From Malacoraja senta (lineage: Eukaryota), in contig CM075987.1 in assembly GCA_038087875.1 (NCBI GenBank), forward strand, positions 19,532,001-19,596,000: 64,000 nt of DNA, given 5' to 3'. How positions within the stretch are numbered: position 1 is the first letter of the stretch; each line of letters starts with the position of its first letter. The position numbers and the translations under genes were made by a program. Shown in pieces: positions 1-11,819 of the stretch. The notes beneath the pieces were generated by a model. It made no database searches. It was given only the letters and a program-made list of their open reading frames with translations, and was not told where the DNA came from.

Positions 1-1252
1 TATGGAGATGAGTGTGTGGCCAGGATGGTGTGGGTCCTTGATGATACTGCCAGCCTTTTTGAGGCAGCGACTGTGATAGATCCCCTCGATGGAAGGGAGG
101 TCAGAGCCGATGATGGACTGGGCAGTGTTTACTACTTTTTGTAGTCTTTTCCTCTCCAGGGCGCTCAAGTTGCCGAACCAAGCCACGATGCAACCAGTCA
201 GCATGCTCTCTACTGTGCACCTGTAGGTTAGAGAGAGTCCTCCTTGACAAACCGACTCTCCGTAATCTACTCAGGAAGTAGATGCGCTGATGTGCTTTCT
301 TAATAATGGCATCAGTGTTCTCGGACCAGGAAAGATCTTCAGAGATGTGCACGCCCAGGAATTTGAAGCTCTTGACCCTTTCAACCATCGACCCGTTGAT
401 ATAAACGGGACTGTGGGTCCCCATCCTACTCCTTCCAAAGTCCACAATCAGTTCCTTGGTTTTGCTGGTGTTGAGGGCCAGGTTATTGTGCTGGCACCAT
501 ATGGACAGTTGCTCGATCTCTCTTCTATACTCTGACACATCCCCATCAGTGATACGTCCCACAACAGTGGTGTCGTCAGCGAACTTGATGATGGAGTTCG
601 CACTATGTCCGGCTACGCAGTCATGAGTATAGAGTGAGTACAGCAGGGGGCTGAGCACGCAGCCTTGAGGTGCTCCCGTGCTGATTGTTATCGAGTCTGA
701 CACATTTCCACCAATACGAACAGACTGTGGTCTGAGAGTGAGGAAGTCGAGGATCCAATTGCAGAGGGATGCGCAGAGACCCAGTTCTGCGAGTTTGGTA
801 ACCAGCTTGGAGGGGATGATTGTGTTAAATGCCGAGCTGTAATCGATGAATAACAGCCTGACATATGAGTTTTTGTTGTCCAAGTGGTCCAGAGCGGAGT
901 GGAGGGCCAGCGAGATCGCATCCACCGTTGATCTGTTGTGGTGGTAAGCGAACTGCAGTGGGTCCAGGTTTTTGTCGAGGTAGGAGTTGATCTGCGTCAT
1001 GATCAACCTCTCAAAGCACTTCATCACCACAGGCGTTAGTGCCACAGGTCGATAGTCATTGAGGCACGTCACCTTACTCTTCTTGGGCACTGGTATAATT
1101 GATGCCCTTTTGAAGCAGGTGGGAACCTCAGACCTCAGAAGTGAGAGGTTGAAAATGTCCGTAAAAACTCCAGCCAGTTGGTCCGCACAGGTTTTTAGAA
1201 CACGACCAGGTATACCATCAGGTCCAGGTGCTTTTCGAGGGTTCACCCCAAT
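1..1252 (-). mobile_element. Rex1/Babar-type non-LTR retrotransposon, 5'-truncated RT fragment, in intron 1 of the left torsin paralog
   Basis: ORF 101-1321 has [53 protein letters not shown] and KFADD. Homology to the paralogous intron (28541) begins at ~1253, so the insertion is specific to this copy. Confidence 0.85.
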
Positions 1253-1892
1253 GAAGTACAATCTCATTTTAGAATTACTGATAACTAGAACCACCGTGTC
1301 CGGCAAATAAATGAGGATCACAGCCAGAACCTAGCAATTAGACAGGCGCATGGATTTGCAGGGAATAGAGGGATATGGGTTATGTGCAGGCAGAGATTAA
1401 TTTAACCCAGCATCAATGTTCAGCACCGATATTGTGGGCTGTAGGACCTGTTCTTGTGCTGTATTGTTCTATCTTCTGTGAGTGTTGGAGGTCAGGAGAC
1501 TAATAAAAGTATATGAGAGGCTTCCTGTGGTGTCCTGTTTTATCTATTTATTACATTATTATAGAAACAACACTATTTCAATGACCACTTTTCACTCTCC
1601 ATCCATCAAAAGAGACAAATAAAGTTAAGATTAAAAAATCAATTTCTTCTCCTTATTATTTCGGGCCAAATTATTACTGGCTTATTACTGGATTTATATC
1701 CAAATCTGAATTTGCATTGTAATTCCCATCAGCAAATATGTGTTGTGCATTGTTCATTGTCACAACTACCCTGGAGAGAGCAGACGTGTTGCAAGGTAGC
1801 CTGTGCAATCTGCATGTAAAAGTCCTGTGGATGCAGCACAAATAAATAGCCGGTGAACGTTAACGTGACGGTGAGATGTCACGACTATTTAC

Positions 1893-2064
1893 CTGTCAGG
1901 TTGAGTTTCACCCACTCGTCCTCACAACACTCCTGGAACTTGCAGTACACTTTGGGGAAGAGGCCGGTAAGAAAAGTGGCCACGCCATCTGCGATGCCCA
2001 TACTGATGGGCATCGCAGGAGTGGACAAGAGCATGAGCAGCACAGCCCGGACCATCACCTTCAT
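1893..2064 (-). CDS. TOR1A: Exon 1 of a second torsin-1 paralog; the remaining exons lie left of the window
   Basis: ATG at 2064; encodes [57 protein letters not shown]; phase-1 donor CAG|GTAAAT identical to the complete gene's exon 1. Confidence 0.85.
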
Positions 2065-2263
2065 GTTTTCGGTTTCCTGGCGGCCGCCCCCAAACAGGCG
2101 ACGAGGCACAAGACCCCGCCTCAGCGCAGCGGCCAGCGAGCCCTGACAACCCGGCGGAAGAGCAGGCGTCGTCACATCCGCCCCTCTGACCTTTCCCCAC
2201 CAACCCTCAGCCGGACATGTTTGTGAGGGGCATCCACACAGGCAGGAATATGGTGCTGACAAC

Positions 2264-2290
2264 CAAAGATACTCCGCTATAGGATCTTTG
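2264..2290. mobile_element. 27-bp two-ended remnant (excision footprint) of the CAAAGATCC-TIR element
   Basis: caaagat-a-ctccgctataggatctttg flanked by the 8-bp TSD ctgacaac (2256-2263 and 2291-2298); the paralogous site at ~29576 is empty. Confidence 0.85.
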
Positions 2291-2358
2291 CTGACAACAG
2301 TCAACTGGTCCCGCGCACTCACTCTATCTCTCTGTCTCATTTTCTGGAGAGTTGGAAC

Positions 2359-4779
2359 CAAAGATCCTATAGCGGAGCAAGATAGGCCACTCCTGCGAAA
2401 TGCAATGGGCTGACGTTAGTACGCAACGGAGCGGAACGTGGGCATTTTTGTCGTCCATTTCAGTAACCGGAACCTACCCGACCCGACTCGCAGTGTAATC
2501 AACGTTGCGGGGGAACGGTTTGTGTGTGTGATATAGGGTTAGATTCATAATTCTGTTAGTTCATTAATTCTTGTTAAAGAAAAAAATGTTTATAAATTAT
2601 GACTCTGGTAATTTTCTTTTTTTTAATGTTTTTTTAATCATTTCTTTATAAATGGCTCATATGCTGTGTTTGAGTTGATTTTGTATTACACTTGTACTGT
2701 AATTCATTCATCTAATCACACTGTTCACAACTGCAGTATTTGGGAAAATAATAGCAATATGAAGATTCCAGTTGCTCTAGCCCTGGAATGTTACTTAATG
2801 TTTTTGTGTCTATGGAGTTGTTTCTCAACAATAAAATGGGTCTGGTCTTCCCAATAGCCAGAGAGTGGAATGAGATCTGTCTGTAATGGTGGGGTTATCT
2901 AATTTAAGTATTTCACAAAATTAAATTCGTTTTGAGCAAGATTTACAAATGATGTATAACTTAAGGATGGTTTTATTCAGCGGGCATACAACTGATTAGA
3001 TTTTGCTGGAAAGAACACACATACATGAATGTGATATAGATGTATATAATAATATAACACACACATTTACATTTCTTCCAATTTTTATATCCAATGATGA
3101 ACTTTATTTCAGACTAGACAAGGGACAACATTAAATAAAAAAACATTGTAAACCTCCCCGCAACTTCACTTTGGTGTCTCGGCCGTGCTGATCCGGGCCA
3201 GACTCCCCGCACGCTGTGGAAGGAACATCTTTTCGCTTTTATTGTGATTTATTTATCTTTTTAACACTGAATATCTGATAACGACACATTAGCAGCATAT
3301 GGCACCAATATTGCACCAACCCACTCAATTTTAAATAATTCATATTAGAAATCCATTAACATGGTTAACACTTTGTTTCTGACATGCATAGTAAGATTTA
3401 CTTAATTCACATTATTCTGTGCGCGACATATACAGGGTTGCAGTGTTCAGCATATCAGCTAACCAGTGAAAGTGATGTACAATTCAACATATGTAACACA
3501 ATGATAGCCCCACCCCTGCTTACACCAAAGAGCAAAACGTCCAACGTAGATACAATAATAAATAAATCGCCATTTGCATTGTTTTGCGCAGCTAACAAAT
3601 CACAATTTCACACAATGTACATAAGACGGCAGTTATTTGACAAATACTCCGCAGTTCGGTGTAGGAGATCATGTCGGCGAGTATTCTGGACCCACTGTCG
3701 ACATCTGAAATGACAGAAAATATCATGCAGTCAATATGTTCTTTAAGTAACATTAAGAATGGCGGGACTGTCATATGCTGAGAGAATGGAACACTCTGGA
3801 GTATAGAAGGAGGAGAGGGAATCTTATTGAAACATATAAGATTGTTAAGGGCTTGGACACACTAGAGGCAGGAAACATTTTCCTGATGTTGGGGGAGTCC
3901 AGAACCAGAGGCCACAGTTTAAGAATAAGGAGTAAGCCATTTAGAACGGAGACGAGGAAACACTTTCTCACAGAGAGTGGTGAGTCTGTGGAATTCTCTG
4001 CCTCAGAAGGCGGTGGAGGCAGGTTCTCTGGATGCTTTCAAGAGAGAGCTAGATAGGGCTCTTAAAAATAGCAGAGTCAGGAGATATGGGGAGAAGGCAG
4101 GAACGGGGTACTGATTGTGGATGATCAGCCATGATCACATTGAATGGCCTACTCCTGCACCAATTGTCTATTGAGGCCTCGACTGTATCTGAGACAAAGG
4201 GGAGCACCCAGCTCTAAGATCTGGACTATAGTGAGAGTTCGGGCAGACTTAATAAAATTCTCAGTATAAAACAGAGTCAATATGTTCTTATTCTGTATTA
4301 AATAACAGAGAGGTAAGAAAGAAAATGCTCTTGAGAAGATTTTTACAAGCATGTTGCCATGAGGACTCGACTATCTGAGCTCTATGATCTAACTACAGTG
4401 AGAGATTGAACAGGCTAAATAAAATTTTCAATATGCCACAGAAGTAATAAATGTTTTCTTACCGTTCCTCCTTAATGGGGAACCTGAAGAAAGACAGGTC
4501 AGGTCGCCTACATTGCCGATTGGAGCAATTTACCGCAGAGCAGAATGCAACGCTAGTAGACGTGGACGCCATGGCCAAAGCGAAGATTTTTTGGATTCGA
4601 GAGCGGAGGCGGAAGCAAAGATCCTATCTTTGGGCGGAAGTAAGATGGCGGAAGCAAGATGGCAGAAGCTGGTTACGAAAATGGGTCCTATAATTACTGA
4701 ATCGATAATGAATCTGCCCATGACCGTACTACGTGTTTAGCGTAGGAGTAGTCCATCTTGCTCCGCTACAGGATCTTTG
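2359..4779. mobile_element. Non-autonomous TIR DNA transposon, P-like (CAAAG...CTTTG termini, 8-bp TSD)
   Basis: TIRs caaagatcctatagcggagcaagat / atcttgctccgctacaggatctttg; TSD gttggaac (2351-2358 and 4780-4787); single gttggaac at the paralogous empty site ~29632. The superfamily call rests on termini and TSD only. Confidence 0.8.
3780..4172 (+). mobile_element. CR1 LINE 3' fragment nested in the P-like element
   Basis: RRRGNLIETYKIVKGLD...ESRTRGHSLRI, typical of the CR1 ORF2 C-terminus, followed by the CR1 3' UTR. Confidence 0.8.
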
Positions 4780-6985
4780 GTTGGAACTATTCAGCAAGTC
4801 ACGCAGCATTTGTGATGAGAAGGAAAAAAACGAATATGTCTTGGAACGAATAAAATTAAGATTATAGAACCCCATCTAATCCAATCAACATATTATTCTA
4901 TTCCCTACTCACCTATTTATTTTTATGTTTCATTTTATGTGAATCTACTAATAATATGCCAATTTTCTGGATGTGTTAACTGTTATCTTCGATTTGTTCC
5001 CCGTAGTTTTAGACACATCCATATTTGTCCCCCTTGCAGAATTTATTTCTGGGGGGAGTTTCCAAATATACAAGGGAGGAAGATTATTTCCAGTTTTGAT
5101 TAGTGCTCAGAACCGTAATGCCTTGATGATTCAGGCACACGTCAAACACAGGACAATTTTTTTGGACTTGAAATAAGATCTCCGAGGAAAAAAAATCCAG
5201 AGGATGCACAAAGTTCTCAAAAGCATTTCAATATTCATGTTTTTGGCAAAATCTGGAAATAGAAATAGAAAACCTGTTATATGTTATAAAACACTGGGCA
5301 GCAGGTTCAATGGTTTTCAAAAGTGAATTGTATAAATACTTGATACAAACGATTACTCAGGTCTGTGAAGGAAAAGTGGGTGGAAGAAGCTGAAAAGAGA
5401 GATATTACAAGAGACATCATGAACACGATGGAATAAAAATAAGGCGCAAGTCGGGAGCATGATACATTAAAAGCAGCACTGTCACATATAGTGTTCCACA
5501 GTAACGTCTCTCAAAATTCGCAAAGATTCTTTAGATTAAGTTACAGATTTTTTTTTTTTGGATTTTCTGTAGTGAATGTATCCAAGATAAATTTCTTGTT
5601 GAAAGATTTTCTTAAAATGCTTTTCTAAATTTAATTTGCTTGACCTTTCTGTGTGCAATTGGTACTGTATTTGAGAAATTGTGCTTTGCTGAGGAAGCTG
5701 CAATTTTAGGATAGATGTGAAGGCTTTGGAAAGACTGCAGAAAATCATTTCAGGGATGATGGATAGACTGGAGAAATTGGGATTGTTTTCTATGAAGGAG
5801 AGTAGGTTGCAAGGAGATCTTAATAGCATTATTTAAAAAACCATATCGAGGAAAGACCATTTATTATGTTCTAGGAGCAGAATTTGCTCATTCGGCCCAA
5901 GTCTACTCTGCTATTCAATCATGGCTGATCTATCTTTTCCCGCTCAACCCCATTCTTTTGCCTTCTCCCCATAACCCAAACACCCTTCCTAATCAATATT
6001 CGTGTCAATCTCTGCCTTAAAATAAAGATTGACAAGGCCTCCAAGTTGTTAATTATTTGAGTGTCTCAAATGGCTGACAAATTTTGAAATAGCTTGCAGG
6101 TCTGGTACATTTAATGTTTAAGTGGGTAAGGCAGTTTTTAATGTATGCTGTCTAGCATCTCTGTACTTCACAATTTGAGATTTGTAATAGAAAAAAATCA
6201 CATGTGGTTAAAGTGCACATTCAGATTTTAATAAAGGCCATTTTTACACATTTTGGTTTCACCATGTAGAAATTAGAGCAGTGTTTATACAGTCCCCCCA
6301 TTTCAGGGCACCATAATGTTTGGGGCAGCAATGTCATGTAAATGAAAGTAGTCGTGTTTATTGTGTTGCATATACTTTGCATGCAATGACTGCTTGTAGT
6401 CTGTGATTCATGGACATCACCAGTTGCTGGGTGTCTTCTCTGGTGCTGCTCTGCCAGGCCTGTATTGCAGCCATCTTTAGCTGATGCTTGTTTTGGGGGC
6501 TAGTCCCTTTAGCATATAAAAGGCATGCTCAATTGGGTTCAGATTGGGTGATTGACTTGGCCACTCAAGAATTGACCATTTTTTAGCTTTGAAAAACTCC
6601 ATTGTTGCTTTAGCAGTATATTTGGGATCATTGTCTTGCTGTAGAATAAACTGCCAGCCAATGAGTTTTGAGGCATTGTTTGAACTTGAGCAGATAGGAT
6701 ATGTCTATATACTTCAGAATTCATTATGCTACTACCATCAGCAGTTGTACCATCAATGAAGATAAGTGATCCAGTACCTTCAGCAGCCTTACATGCCCAG
6801 GCCATAACACCCCCACCACTGTGTTTCACAGATGAGGTGGTATACTTTGGATCTTGGGCACTTCCTTCTCACCTCCATACTTTACTCTTGCCATCACTCT
6901 GAAATAAGTTAATCTTCGTCTCATCTGTCCACAAGACCTTTTTCCAGAACTGTGGTTGCTCTTTTAAGTACTTCACAAACTTCAG

Positions 6986-9900
6986 GTGTGCATCTGTGGT
7001 TGGGAGAAATTAACATCAGTGAAGGGCTTGAAGATCCACCAAGGGAAGAAAAAGTGCTTGAGAGAGCAGAAACATGGGCCTCGCATTGACCAGTACTTCT
7101 TACGAAGCAACCAGTCAAATCAGTCGAGTGAAGCACAGCGACGGGACACAAACCAAAGTTCGCAGAGCATCAGCACCCATGTCACTGAAGAGGGTGATAC
7201 AAGCACAGAAATGCCGGTGGAGGAGCCCACGCAACAACTACAAAGACCTCCATTGGAGGGAAAGATCAAAGGGCACAAACCTGGAGTGAAATGGCCCAAG
7301 GCTGTTGAAAAGAAAGAGTGGGAGACGGTCAACAGTGACCTTATACATATCTTGGAGCAACAAGCGGGCACAGCAGTGGAAAAGCTTGAAAGGATGGGCA
7401 ACACAATCTACAGCTATGGAGAAGAACGGTTTGGGGTGAGTAAAGGGAGAGGTGGAAAGAAATTACCAACACCAATCAAGTCCAGGAGGCAGCAGGAGAT
7501 CGAGAGGCTAATCAGAGAGAGGAGACAGTTGAAAAAGCAATGGAAAAAAGCAACTGACGCAGAGAGAGAAGGTCTCATGCTACTCCAAGAGGACATCAAG
7601 AACCGATTGGCAACCTTGCGAAAAGCAGAGAACTTGAGGAAACTTCGCAAGAAGAAAGAACACACAAGAACACGGTTCTATAAAGACCCTTTCAAGTTCA
7701 TCAAAGATCTCTTCGCAAAGGAAAAAAGTGGAACTTTGAAAACATCAAAACAGGAATTGGAGGAACACCTGGAAAAGGCCCACAAAGACACGAAAAGGCA
7801 TGAGCAGTTGGTCATCCCACATGACATCCCGCCTATTCAACCACCTGAATTCAACATGGACACCAGCCCTCCGAGATGGAAAGAGGTGGAGAACACGGTC
7901 CGGCGAGCAAGAGCAGCATCAGCTCCGGGGCCAAACGGAGTACCATACAAGCTCTATAAGAATGCACCGGATGTGTTACGCTTTCTATGGAAGCTCATGA
8001 GGGTGGTGTGGAAGAAGCAAACAATACCTAAGGCTTGGCGAAGGGCCGGCGGCGTGCTAATACCTAAAGAAAAGGATTCGTCAGACATCAGCCAATTCCG
8101 GCCAATATGTCTCCTCAACGTCGAGGGAAAAATCTTTTTTAGCATTGTATCACAAAGGCTGTCCACCTATCTGGTAACAAACAAGTACATTGATACATCT
8201 GTACAGAAAGCAGGAATTCCAGGATTTTCGGGCTGCTTGGAGCATACAAGCATGATCTGGCACCAGATCCAAGCAGCTAAGAAGGACAAGAGAGATCTAC
8301 ATGTGATCTTCCTCGATCTGGCCAATGCATTTGGTTCAGTTCCCCATGAACTCCTTTGGGAATCTTTTGCCTTTTTCCATGTACCAGAGCTCATCACCAC
8401 ACTGGTCAAGAAATATTACCAAGACCTGCAGCTGTGCTTCACAACAGCTGACTTCAGTACAACATGGCAGCGCTTGGAAGTAGGCATCATGGCAGGCTGC
8501 ACAGTCTCACCCTTGGCCTTTACAATGGCCATGGAAGTCATCATCAGGGCCTCAAAATGGGTGGTGGGCGGTGAACGAACCAGGGCTGGGCTCCGTCTGC
8601 CACCCATCAGGGCATACATGGACGACATGACAACACTAACCACTACTGCAGCATGCACCAAGCGGCTACTTGGAAAGCTGCAGGAGAACATCAAGTGGGC
8701 CCGAATGAAAATCAAACCAAGTAAATCTCGAAGCATCTCCATAGTCAAGGGGGTGCTTAGAGACACAAGGTTCTGTATTGGTGACGACCCAATACCAACA
8801 GTGTCTGAGCAGCCAGTTAAAAGCCTGGGAAGATGGTATAACGCACGTCTCAAGGACAAAGAGCAGGTGCAACAACTAAGGCAAGAAATTGTCAATGGAC
8901 TGGAGAACATCAATCAGACCCTACTGCCTGGGAAACTGAAGCTCTGGTGCCTACAGTTTGGACTCCTTCCTCGGACAATGTGGCCACTGACCGTTTATGA
9001 AGCCCCAATAACAACTGTGGAGAAGATGGAGCGAACCATAACTTCATACGTGAAGAAATGGCTCGGTGTCCCACGATGTCTAACTAACATCGGCCTATAT
9101 GGCAAAGGGGTCCTGGAACTACCTCTCACTAGTCTAACAGAGGAATATAAGTGTTCTAAAGTAAGACTCCAGATGACACTGAGGGACTCTAGAGACAAGA
9201 TCATCAGTGCTGTTGCGCCGCCCCTAGCAACTGGCCGGAAGTGGACACCATCTGATGCAGTACAGCAAGCTTCATCAGCCCTGAGGCACAAAGACATAGT
9301 GGGGCAAGTCCAGCAGGGAAGAGGAGGCTTTGGCCTTACGACAAGTAAACCAACTTGGCGAAAGGCCACAACATCAGAGCGGAGGACGTTGGTGGTTGAG
9401 GAGGTGCGGCGACAGGAGGAGGCCGCAAGAAGTGCAAAGGCGGTCTCTCTTGCCAAGCAGGGGCAATGGATGCAGTGGGAAGGTGTGGAGCGGAGGAAGA
9501 TCAGCTGGAAAGAACTATGGGAAATGGAAGCAAGCAAGATCAGCTTCATCATCAGAGCGACATATGACGTGCTTCCATCACCAAAGAACCTCCATCAGTG
9601 GTACGGCGAGGATCCAACCTGTGCCATCTGCCCAACTCCAGCGACCCTCAAACACATCATGGTAGGCTGCAAGACCAGCCTCACACAAGGGAGATACACG
9701 TGGCGGCATAATCAGGTACTAAAAAGCCTGGCATCAGCCCTTGAGAACAGGCGGTGTGCGACCAACTCCTTGCCTCCGAGAGCAAGCAACCCTCCCCTAA
9801 GGGTAATAACCTTTGTCCGAGAAGGACAGAAAACTTCCAAACTTCCTTCCACCAGATCAGAAGAAGGAAGCCAATGCAGGGCCCGTGACTGGAGGATGCT

Positions 9901-10306
9901 GGTGGACATCGGCCGACAACTAATTTTTCCACCTGAAATTGCTTCCACCACCCTCAGGCCAGACTTGGTGTTCTGGTCCCCTTCACAGAAGACTGCTTAC
10001 ATCATAGAGCTCACAGTTCCATGGGAGAACTCTGTTGAGGAGGCCTATGAGCGTAAGAAGCTGCGCTACGCAGAGCTTGCAGCAGAGGCAACGCAGCGTG
10101 GCTGGAACACCAAAGTCTATCCAGTTGAAGTGGGATGCAGAGGATTTGTTGCGTCATCTACCATCAGACTGCTGAAGGAGCTTGGAATCCACGGTCAAGC
10201 TCTGCGGAAGACCATAAGATCACTCTCAGAGGCGGCTGAAAGAAGCAGCCGGTGGATTTGGCTCAAGCAGAAAGACCCATGCTGGGCCCCAAGTATGTCG
10301 GGGTGA
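6986..10306 (+). CDS. RT-RLE polyprotein: N-terminal zinc finger, reverse transcriptase, CCHC knuckle, restriction-like endonuclease
   Basis: Uninterrupted 1106 codons: CICGW...IHQGKKKC, APGPNG, FRPICLLN, LDLANAFGSVPH, YMDD, CAIC...KHIMVGC, RHNQVL, RPDLV, ELTVPWE, KKLRY. No ATG at the 5' edge, so slightly 5'-truncated. Confidence 0.92.
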   Translation: MCICGWEKLTSVKGLKIHQGKKKCLREQKHGPRIDQYFLRSNQSNQSSEAQRRDTNQSSQSISTHVTEEGDTSTEMPVEEPTQQLQRPPLEGKIKGHKPGVKWPKAVEKKEWETVNSDLIHILEQQAGTAVEKLERMGNTIYSYGEERFGVSKGRGGKKLPTPIKSRRQQEIERLIRERRQLKKQWKKATDAEREGLMLLQEDIKNRLATLRKAENLRKLRKKKEHTRTRFYKDPFKFIKDLFAKEKSGTLKTSKQELEEHLEKAHKDTKRHEQLVIPHDIPPIQPPEFNMDTSPPRWKEVENTVRRARAASAPGPNGVPYKLYKNAPDVLRFLWKLMRVVWKKQTIPKAWRRAGGVLIPKEKDSSDISQFRPICLLNVEGKIFFSIVSQRLSTYLVTNKYIDTSVQKAGIPGFSGCLEHTSMIWHQIQAAKKDKRDLHVIFLDLANAFGSVPHELLWESFAFFHVPELITTLVKKYYQDLQLCFTTADFSTTWQRLEVGIMAGCTVSPLAFTMAMEVIIRASKWVVGGERTRAGLRLPPIRAYMDDMTTLTTTAACTKRLLGKLQENIKWARMKIKPSKSRSISIVKGVLRDTRFCIGDDPIPTVSEQPVKSLGRWYNARLKDKEQVQQLRQEIVNGLENINQTLLPGKLKLWCLQFGLLPRTMWPLTVYEAPITTVEKMERTITSYVKKWLGVPRCLTNIGLYGKGVLELPLTSLTEEYKCSKVRLQMTLRDSRDKIISAVAPPLATGRKWTPSDAVQQASSALRHKDIVGQVQQGRGGFGLTTSKPTWRKATTSERRTLVVEEVRRQEEAARSAKAVSLAKQGQWMQWEGVERRKISWKELWEMEASKISFIIRATYDVLPSPKNLHQWYGEDPTCAICPTPATLKHIMVGCKTSLTQGRYTWRHNQVLKSLASALENRRCATNSLPPRASNPPLRVITFVREGQKTSKLPSTRSEEGSQCRARDWRMLVDIGRQLIFPPEIASTTLRPDLVFWSPSQKTAYIIELTVPWENSVEEAYERKKLRYAELAAEATQRGWNTKVYPVEVGCRGFVASSTIRLLKELGIHGQALRKTIRSLSEAAERSSRWIWLKQKDPCWAPSMSG

Positions 10307-10365
10307 ATCTTTGGGACGGTTTGACACGGGACATGCGCTGAGGGTTGATCATCCTGCAGCGGGCC

Positions 10366-10440
10366 GCCCTTGTGGAGGGTGTATAGTGTTAAAAGGCCGA
10401 AACACCCAGTGATGCAAGGGTACACTACTGATGATGTGTC
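10366..10440 (+). ncRNA. Candidate non-circularly permuted (pseudoknotted) hammerhead ribozyme in the HERO 3' UTR
   Basis: GGGTG-TA (10377-83) pairs with GAAA-CACCC (10399-407); TAGTGT (10384-89) pairs with ACACTA (10422-27), which is directly followed by CTGATGA (10428-34); GCCCTTGT/GCAAGGGT extends stem III. Stem II is poorly defined. Confidence 0.6.
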
Positions 10441-11819
10441 ATATGCCCAACTGTCCTGAAGGTTACCCCCCCCACCCGATGTTGAGCGTCTACCACTCTC
10501 AACAATCAACGAATGTCGTGAAATGCTCCCCACCTATTGGCACAAGGGACTTCTTAACATCTTGTCCTGTGTATTTGATTCTGAAATAAGTTAATCTTCG
10601 TCTCATCTGTCTACAAGACCTTTTTCCAGAACTGTGGTTGCTCTTTTAAGTACTTCTTGGCAAACTGTAACCTGGTCATCCCATTTTTGCAGCTAACCAG
10701 TGGATTACATCTTGCAGTGTAGCCTCAGTATATCTGTTCATGAAGTCTTCTGCGGACAGTGGTATTGACAAATCCACAGCTGACTCCTGAAGAGTGTTTC
10801 TGATCTGTTGGACAGGTGTTTGGGGATTTTTCTTTATTATAGAGAGAATTCTTCTGTCATCAGCTGTGGAGGTCTTCCTTGGCCTGCCAGTCCCTTTGCG
10901 ATTAGTAAGCTCACCAGTGCTCTCTCCTTAATTATGTTCTAAACAGTTGATTTTGGTAAGCCTGTTTGGCTGATGTCTCTGACAGTTTTACTCTTGTTTC
11001 TCATTCTCATAATGGCTTTTTGGACTTTCTTTGGCACAACTTTAGTCCTCATGTTGATAAACAGCAATAAAAGTTTCCAAAGGTGATGGAAAGAATAGGT
11101 GCTGAGAGCTCTCTTATACCTGCATTAAGGAGGCATTTAAACACACCTGAGCAATTACAAACACCTGTGAAACCATGTTTCCCAAGCATTATGGTGCCCT
11201 GAAATTGGGGGGACTATGTATAAACACAGCTGTAATTTTTACATGGTGAAGCAAATGTATAAAAATACCCTTTAATAAAATATGACAATGCACTGTAACT
11301 ACATGTGATTTTTTTCTATTACAAATCTCCAATTGTGGAGTACAATTCTATTACAAATCACAAATTGTGGCAAATAAATAAATGGGTCTTTTTCCTAAAC
11401 ATTATGGAGGGCACTGTAGATTTCTAGTTTGATTTAGAAGAAGCAACAAACAGATCCTGATTGACATCTGTTCATTGAAAGTAGAACATTTTGCCTTCAA
11501 GTAAAGGCGACATCTTTAAAGGATTCAAACTGCCAATTGATAGAACGTTCGTGCCCACAATGTCAAATCATTGATGAAAACTATCAGGCCTTAGAGATGT
11601 GGTCTGTTTCCATTCACCAACTGTAGAACACGGTGAAGGACAGTGGACACACATTGGGCGGTGGACAAGTACAAAACAAACTAGGTGAAGATGCAGACCA
11701 AATGCGTTTACTCTTGGATAGGTCAGGGGAAAGCAGGAGCCAGACTCCAAGAATGAGACTGCAACAGTAAGAGAGCTGCAAGACTATCTCAAGAAGTATT
11801 AAAGGTGAAGCATCCAGGA

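Follow-up and report, generated by a model that had tools for sequence, protein, structure and literature searches.

Natural hammerhead ribozymes with a non-circular order of strands were first described in 2023, and solely from metatranscriptome and metagenome sequences that also contained hairpin ribozymes (Eckert, Friedrich, Weinberg & Weinberg, Nucleic Acids Research; PMC10085705). The permutations in the main text of that study include type SGC (the HRIMA-1 motif and its variants), where S, G and C stand for the substrate strand, the GAAA strand and the CUGANGA strand, read 5' to 3'. According to the same text, type SGC RNAs cleave in vitro at the predicted site, all four of their helices are required, and stems I and II are joined by a linker of ~3 nucleotides (nt). 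Block C (stem I strand, CUGAnGA and stem II strand) is assumed there to be uninterruptible, known hammerheads having at most 1–2 nt inserted, and the direct connection of the far end of stem III to the bridging helix in some members is left unexplained. Elements of the R2, RTE and L1Tc groups have been described as carrying, at the 5' end, ribozymes of another class that resemble the one of hepatitis delta virus (HDV) (Eickbush 2010; Ruminski 2011; both as cited in PMC13725137; also PMC3774820). Here we describe a conserved RNA domain of ~120 nt with a complete hammerhead core, at positions 10325–10445 of a 64,000-nt stretch of the Malacoraja senta genome (assembly GCA_038087875.1, contig CM075987.1, positions 19,532,001 to 19,596,000), the whole of which is called the window. 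The domain lies in the 3' untranslated region (UTR) of an R2-like, HERO-type retrotransposon without long terminal repeats (non-LTR), and on balance we think that it cuts itself and trims multimeric transcripts of the element to unit length. All features located below are on the + strand.

A first-pass annotation of the window had proposed a scrambled hammerhead at 10366–10440. The words it named were all found in the window sequence, namely GCCCTTGT at 10366–10373, followed by GGA, GGGTG (10377–10381), TA (10382–10383) and TAGTGT (10384–10389), and then GAAA (10399–10402), CACCC (10403–10407), AGTGAT, GCAAGGGT (10414–10421), ACACTA (10422–10427) and CTGATGA (10428–10434). A scan of the window allowed every order of the three hammerhead strands, with a stem I of at least 6 base pairs (bp) and a stem III of at least 5 bp, all within 90 nt. 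On both strands of the window this motif, in the scan order c-b-a, was the single match. The proposed non-circular order of substrate, GAAA and CUGAUGA was borne out by the scan and by the relatives.

Copies of the element in its own genome were identical over 10366–10434 in 30/30 cases, and protein and DNA searches of that genome returned only copies 97–100% identical. These were useless for covariation, and relatives were therefore fetched from metagenome contigs. An alignment of 25 homologous proteins led to 80 metagenome loci with 82–33% protein identity, on contigs whose hosts are not known and some of which are wrap-around assemblies of tandem copies. The S-G-C motif was found in 37 loci in a scan of all 80, and the true matches were all on the strand of the open reading frame (ORF), just past the stop codon. 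Five scan matches were set aside as chance (the second of L067, the minus-strand one of L069, the first of L090, and those of L112 and L124). Among the 42 loci with an ORF end and at least 150 nt downstream, 39 carried the S-G-C hammerhead core, 34 by the strict scan and five by eye or by the model described below; these five (L071, L085, L102, L105 and L124) showed one deviation or had been trivially missed. The motif was absent from 3/42 loci, L068, L078 and L121. The single match in viral contigs (L141, 25% identity) was unrelated and was discarded.

Two of the loci without the motif, L078 and L121, belong to distant lineages (38–39% identity). The 3' UTR of L078 holds instead a hairpin unit, AAUCCCCUCAG.../GGGAUUA, in three repeats, together with a CUGAUGA that stands isolated.

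When the 3' UTRs of nearer relatives were aligned without guidance, the region was conserved while its stems changed. Stem I, for example, changes from UAGUGU/ACACUA to GUGGGC/GCCCAC, and GUA, GUC and GUU all occur as the predicted cut triplet. No other part of the 3' UTR approaches the domain in conservation across lineages.

A covariance model was built from the nested helices only, that is the closing helix P5, the hairpin P0, the bridging helix Pb and stem III; stems I and II were added afterwards as pseudoknots. The model gave 44 matches in 359,867 nt, 44/44 of them on the + strand, and in the window it matched only 10328–10442 (99.7 bits, E 6e-21). In the resulting alignment (39 distinct rows, 39 pairs), 92.1% of cells were paired vs 58.9±0.9% after shuffling, and 37–43% when the partners were slid by 1–3 columns. 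Changes on both sides were seen in 37/39 pairs, amounting to 460 such cells vs 134 in the shuffled sets, and none of the five measures used was reached in 500 shuffles. For stems I, II and III combined, double changes occurred in 15/17 pairs. Since stems I and II are absent from the model, the alignment was not fitted to them. In an independent MAFFT alignment of 30 sequences the three stems were 96.2% paired vs 66.1%, in a set that leans towards the structure, having been chosen by a scan requiring stems I and III and trimmed at the parsed start of stem II. The parsing scripts take the best pairing in small windows, which biases helix lengths upwards, a bias addressed by the shuffle nulls and controls.

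Core positions were counted in the model alignment using hammerhead numbering. U4, A9 and U16.1 were present in 38/38 rows and A13, A14 and A15.1 in 39/39, followed by G5 and A6 (both 37/38), G12 (38/39), G10.1 (37/38) and C11.1 (35/39). Position N7 was free (U 20, C 10, A 7, G 1), and H17 was C in 15 rows, U in 12, A in 11 and G in none (n=38). The C3/G8 pair was C-G except for two U-A and two U-G, all in one lineage group, and was never C-A. Single core changes were G12A in L124, G5U in L126 and A6U in L102, and these three rows look like decayed copies. The pattern in these columns is that of hammerhead conservation in detail. The comparative check proposed in the first-pass annotation, conservation and covariation among relatives, came out in its favour over the 39 rows: stems I and III covary, and CUGAUGA and GAAA are kept. 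With compensating mutations preserving the fold in relatives this distant, the domain almost certainly has a function, for which self-cutting is the predicted candidate.

The limits first given, 10366–10440, cut the domain. It begins ~20 nt past the stop codon and is closed by P5, in which 10325–10334 pairs with 10436–10445 (90.0% paired, double changes in 8/8 pairs); P5 is 8–14 bp long in 17/33 lineages vs a null mean of 3.8. Its 3' strand (10435–10445) comes directly after A9. The hairpin P0 (10336–10361, loop UUGAUCA) abuts G10.1 and is 99.3% paired in its outer and 75.2% in its inner part. Next comes the 5' strand of stem II, GGCC at 10362–10365 (G10.1 to 10.4), upstream of the proposed motif, which pairs with GGCC at 10395–10398, the 3' strand ending in C11.1. 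This yields the canonical G10.1-C11.1 pair, seen in 33/38 rows. Stem II, though absent from the search model, was 94.2% paired with double changes in 4/5 pairs, and in all parsed sequences the 4–5 nt before GAAA paired upstream of the substrate strand and not after CUGANGA.

The bridging helix Pb (10366–10373 with 10414–10421) is the 8-bp helix GCCCUUGU/GCAAGGGU over a GGA/AGUGAU loop that had been read as an extension of stem III. The helix itself is real (92.7% paired, double changes in 6/6 pairs, contiguous length 5.9 vs a null of 3.43±0.21), while its role as a mere extension does not hold; its far end is directly joined to those of stem I and stem II. It stands 0–2 nt after the 5' strand of stem II and 0–3 nt before the 5' strand of stem I, and this spacing ties the far ends of the two stems together. 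The other end of Pb connects, via the loop formed by J5 (GGA, 10374–10376) and J3 (AGUGAU, 10408–10413), to the far end of stem III.

Stem III consists of 10377–10382, a 3' strand ending in U16.1, and 10403–10407, and stem I of 10384–10389 and 10422–10427. Both stems, as first drawn, are real and covary, with 97.5% of cells paired in stem III and 93.3% in stem I; the U16.1-A15.1 pair was found in 38/38 rows, and stem I, also absent from the search model, had double changes in 6/6 pairs. By analogy with the hammerhead, the predicted cleavage site lies between A10383 (H17) and U10384 (position 1.1), 77 nt past the stop codon of the 6968–10306 frame. An A-rich linker, UAAAA at 10390–10394, leads from stem I to stem II and measures 0–8 nt, mostly 2–5 nt, in 33 sequences. 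GAAA at 10399–10402 (G12, A13, A14 and A15.1) is kept in 38–39 of the 39 rows, and CUGAUGA at 10428–10434 runs from C3 to A9. The strand order is therefore stem II 5' strand, substrate, GAAA and CUGANGA, with all three hammerhead stems closed internally. The junction comprises five helices, A9 leading into P5 and the hairpin P0 preceding G10.1. A direct fourth helix between the flanks of A9 and G10.1, without P0, had been sought by eye and was abandoned once P5 and P0 emerged.

The consensus of a kink-turn is a helix, a 3-nt bulge, tandem sheared G.A/A.G pairs and a second helix. The short strand J5 fits the pattern NGA, with an NGA-then-G word in the large majority of the 39 rows, and the long strand J3 the pattern NNN-GA-N, with GA at loop positions 4–5 in most rows and variable first three bases. 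Judged by sequence pattern alone, both loop strands were kink-turn-like in 22/33 sequences. Some other lineages have instead a bulge of 3–6 nt on the opposite strand.

The loop of P0 (10345–10351) carries lineage-specific 6-nt palindromes, UGAUCA, UGGCCA or UGUACA, in about 19–22 of 33–39 relatives (L061–L140), and in other lineages it reads G(G/A)GACG. The palindromic form looks like a kissing-loop site for RNA dimers. In the 3' strand of P5 the window copy has A at 10441 and at 10443, where 29/29 other aligned copies have C and G, and these two P5 positions are unpaired in it. The window copy is dead and truncated and has these two private changes, although its hammerhead core is intact.

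The arrangement of copies in the genome bears on what the domain may do. Tandem copies show a 3954-nt period and precise junctions (loci L142–L155), and pattern counts in the own genome showed 130 of 141 exact 5' ends adjoining the last 8 nt of another copy. Thirteen copies with intact ORFs were sampled. Unit position 1 is reached by 11 of them, and in ten of these 11 a 5'-truncated copy, 124–1067 nt long, lies immediately upstream across a precise junction. In the contigs of the relatives, 13/18 motif instances with room downstream were followed by another ORF start. That head-to-tail copies are the rule for this element implies templates longer than one unit, or endless ones, and suggests that such long transcripts are processed or re-ligated. 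The arrangement places a full unit between two candidate ribozymes, as in retrozymes and Penelope-like elements.

On our preferred reading, self-cutting with trimming to unit length, self-cleavage of the RNA would separate A10383 from U10384, and with about 28 bp (P5, II, Pb and III) still holding its two parts together the break could readily be re-sealed. Transcripts of [partial][full] head-to-tail arrays would in this way be trimmed to unit length, and the unit-length RNAs, possibly closed as circles or held as clamped nicked circles, might serve as both message and template. The reverse transcriptase, starting at the fixed 3' boundary, would then copy round the circle. A broader extension is that a clade of long interspersed nuclear elements (LINEs) in bilaterians replicates in the manner of viroids and retrozymes, with a hammerhead of new connectivity cutting, the ribozyme itself or a host ligase re-sealing the circles, and the reverse transcriptase regenerating tandem copies; this we offer tentatively and consider rather unlikely.

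Several observations weigh against self-cutting in the cell. The 28 nt after the site have 450 exact occurrences in the genome, and 0/450 are preceded by three non-element bases. In the census of 5' ends (ten upstream partial copies plus the pattern counts), 7/10 upstream partial copies run through the site, and their starts (unit positions 2888–3831) scatter around the cut (3748/3749) without clustering; partial copy L148 starts ~10 nt from the cut and not at it. From the 0/450 starts and the 7/10 read-through it follows that integrated copies came from RNA that was uncut or re-sealed at the site. The suggestion that cleavage releases a 3' fragment accordingly finds no genomic support among these 450 copies, and the helices of about 28 bp would keep both parts attached to each other after a cut. 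RNA evidence was drawn from related organisms, in the form of two runs of raw RNA reads and two sets of contigs, with a depth of ~5–12 on the element and in both orientations. Reads span 10383/10384 at a depth of ~10 with no pile-up of ends and no joints, a depth too low to decide. A circle closed at the cut site would moreover be colinear with tandem DNA, and short reads cannot distinguish the two.

The form of the domain raises further objections. The Rfam models do not match it: over the whole window no family reached its gathering score, hammerhead models included, the hammerhead models gave no match at E<=10 over 9800–10900, and over the full unit no family at all matched at E<=1, nor was there an HDV-like match. 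A permuted form with a pseudoknot would be expected to escape the hammerhead models. Taken alone, the nested fold has no unusual stability (z -0.83), and the minimum-energy nested fold recovers Pb and stem III without being significant. Five to eight lineages have no kink-turn-like pattern, and it is not obvious from simple geometry that Pb, stem III and stems I and II can coexist. The chain break and the two extra helices at A9/G10.1 are unprecedented, and activity cannot be assumed.

About half of the reads from the related organisms carry C, T and A at window positions 10383, 10385 and 10389, which gives a GUC triplet and alters stem I at two positions. At 10426 and 10422 no matching partner changes are listed, the coverage of these reads falling after 10412. 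The reads probably represent a sister subfamily.

Many of the same points would suit a hammerhead-derived rigid scaffold, a site for the reverse transcriptase or for a host kink-turn-binding protein, that does no useful cutting in the cell. Integrated copies would then all derive from RNA intact at the site, in line with 0/450 starting there and with reads spanning it, and such a role would sit well with the domain being the most conserved part of the 3' UTR. Binding of structured 3' UTR RNA by R2 proteins is known (PMC12222951). The kink-turn-like loop and the palindromic hairpin loop resemble binding and dimerisation sites, and the unprecedented insertion at A9/G10.1 might disable catalysis. 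A scaffold, however, needs no full catalytic core, yet a free N7, a non-G H17, a C3-G8 pair with U-A and U-G variants and the G10.1-C11.1 pair have all been kept, and the decayed copies (G12A in L124, G5U in L126, A6U in L102) show a core that is not simply immutable. We regard the scaffold as the chief alternative to self-cutting, if a rather unlikely one.

Far less probable is a plain type SGC hammerhead confined to 10366–10440, with a weak stem II downstream of CUGAUGA and the 8-bp helix extending stem III, as the first-pass annotation had it. The S-G-C order and stems I and III are correct in that reading. Its stem II, however, fell away: the strand after CUGAUGA was 39.5% paired vs 39.0±2.5% in shuffled sets, 220/500 shuffles were as high, and the first pair (10.1-11.1) formed in 1/38 rows, whereas the upstream strand was 94.2% paired for stem II and the strand after A9 pairs with 10325–10334 as P5. 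U10421 and A10422 are adjacent without a linker, so that, given the helix lengths, a straight extension of stem III would be incompatible with stem I.

A chance resemblance, in which ordinary 3' UTR helices happen to be flanked by CUGAUGA, GAAA and UA, has hardly any probability left. Its frequency was estimated in first-order Markov random sequence worth 100 windows, on both strands. With all-Watson-Crick stems of 6/5 bp there were 0 matches per 100 windows, with G-U pairs allowed 1 (0.01 per window), with 5/4 bp and CUGANGA 20, and with 4/3 bp and CUGANGA 122, so loose versions of the motif occur 0.2–1.2 times per random window, and the 97–100% identical copies in the own genome are uninformative on this point. 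A single match is rare per window yet expected somewhere across very many windows, and so the window sequence alone cannot decide. What excludes chance is not the single-window statistic but conservation and covariation in distant relatives: identical words stand at identical junctions down to 33% protein identity, while every helix changes in sequence.

We likewise give practically no credence to a box C/D-like small RNA in the UTR with a kink-turn made of the UGAUGA and CUGA words: around the site Rfam returned noise-level matches only, to C/D small nucleolar RNAs and long non-coding RNAs (at 10372–10490, sR52 with 17.7 bits and E 0.56 and snoZ40 with E 3.2, against a gathering score of 50), which arise from GA words in the kink-turn-like loop and from CUGAUGAUG, and the conserved pairs and core misfit the C/D architecture, with CUGANGA varying exactly at hammerhead position 7.

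The host copy occupies 6974–10582 and is 99.3% identical in BLAST to the natural full unit, which was excised from a tandem array and measures 3954 nt (5' UTR of 131 nt, ORF of 1181 codons, 3' UTR of ~276 nt). It corresponds to unit positions 339–3954, and to call it near-intact was generous, the first 338 nt being absent. The open frame (6968–10306; 1112 codons, 1181 in full copies) encodes a reverse transcriptase (Pfam RVT_1, E 3.3e-23). At the C-terminus there are a CCHC motif and a PD..E..K endonuclease-like motif, the latter recognised by eye; C885, C888, H896, C901, R997-P998-D999, E1014 and K1030 were invariant in the alignment of homologous proteins. The closest solved relatives of the protein were R2 retrotransposon proteins (E 1.4e-24), followed by LINE-1 ORF2p, and homologues were found in teleosts, lamprey, amphioxus and bivalves, in agreement with the hosts of the HERO clade as given in PMC7650587. 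A HERO-type label would fit on these three grounds, RVT_1, the R2 protein relatives and the host range.

Hundreds of copies of the element, 97–100% identical, are present in its own genome; first-look candidates numbered 1154 with the 3' UTR and 3428 with the C-terminal protein as query. The 3' end is fixed at window position ~10582 in all copies, is common to 29 other copies and has no poly-A tail. The remainder of the 3' UTR up to this end, as defined by comparing copies, is 10446–10582; the estimate that the copy runs ~195 nt past the cleavage site was close to the 199 nt measured from 10383/10384 to the end of the element. A poly-C tract at 10466–10473 varies in length among family copies.

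The flank at 10583–10700 is a very high-copy repeat with a read depth of 300–500 vs ~10 on the element, and many reads diverge upstream of 10580–10586. From this depth and these divergent reads, the copy was inserted into another repeat.

The 5' UTR contains repeated GACAGCTGAC-like words (unit positions 1–131 in L155; downstream of the ribozyme in L064) and is recognisably kept between lineages at ~67% protein identity, which suggests that it may be a second functional RNA or a promoter element.

Compared with type SGC as set out in the main text of PMC10085705, the window domain has the same 5'-3' order of blocks S-G-C, the full set of core nucleotides, a short linker between stems I and II, a fourth helix tying the other sides of these stems, and a far end of stem III connected directly to the bridging helix. 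It differs in block C, which is continuous in type SGC; in the window domain the site block is preceded by the stem II strand, and P5 and P0 stand between A9 and G10.1. The two ends of the type SGC RNA, one at the site block and the other past the bridging helix, are joined in the window domain via the kink-turn-like loop. Formally the domain can be described as type SGC circularly permuted and opened inside block C between A9 and G10.1, and set against that main text it is a further permutation outside the six given there; the supplement may contain eukaryotic variants. In the literature search the term type SGC was found in this paper only, and the opinion of the first-pass annotation that non-circular hammerheads are rare agrees with there being this one paper. 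Type SGC has been shown to cleave and comes from metatranscriptomes and metagenomes that also hold hairpin ribozymes (presumed circular RNA agents); the window domain, a predicted ribozyme, lies in the 3' UTR of an autonomous animal retrotransposon. The new permutation breaks the assumption of a continuous CUGAnGA block in the 2023 study, and pattern and model searches built on contiguous blocks will have overlooked this domain family.

In its sequence pattern the loop resembles kink-turns (Kt-7, box C/D, U4), with a variable 3-nt bulge followed by conserved G-A, and conserved G-A opposite, between regular helices. We know of no kink-turn described in a hammerhead, and the literature search found none either. 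A kink-turn-like hinge would plausibly solve the geometric problem raised by the 2023 study, in which stem III has to reach, with its far end, the helix bridging stems I and II.

With the classical hammerheads of types I–III, including those of Penelope-like elements and retrozymes, the domain shares the core, the three stems and a tie between stems I and II, although its strand order is not a circular permutation of theirs and it lacks the three continuous core strands in a three-way junction that are typical of hammerheads. As in Penelope-like elements and retrozymes, the putative ribozyme sits in tandem retroelements, with cutting of multimeric RNA proposed. The host here is an R2-like LINE with a restriction-like endonuclease, in contrast to the Penelope-like or non-autonomous retrozyme hosts of classical hammerheads. 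No link between the 3' UTRs of HERO or other non-LTR elements and a hammerhead was found in the literature search, and none of the matches listed on non-circular permutation and hammerheads dealt with retrotransposons. The finding places a non-circular hammerhead form in animal genomes, inside an autonomous retrotransposon with hundreds of young copies. Together with the near-universal tandem copies, it opens to direct testing the idea that a LINE passes through circular or multimeric RNA in its life cycle.

Like the HDV-like ribozymes of the R2 group, as described in the sources cited at the outset, the domain is a candidate self-cleaving ribozyme carried by an R2-group element, and in tandem copies the 3' UTR ribozyme comes ~340 nt upstream of the next start codon, a position like that of a 5' ribozyme. 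It belongs to another ribozyme class and is located in the 3' UTR, and, unlike elements with HDV-like 5' ribozymes, full-length copies do not start at the cut. With this candidate, R2-group elements would gain a second class of ribozyme beside the HDV-like ones.

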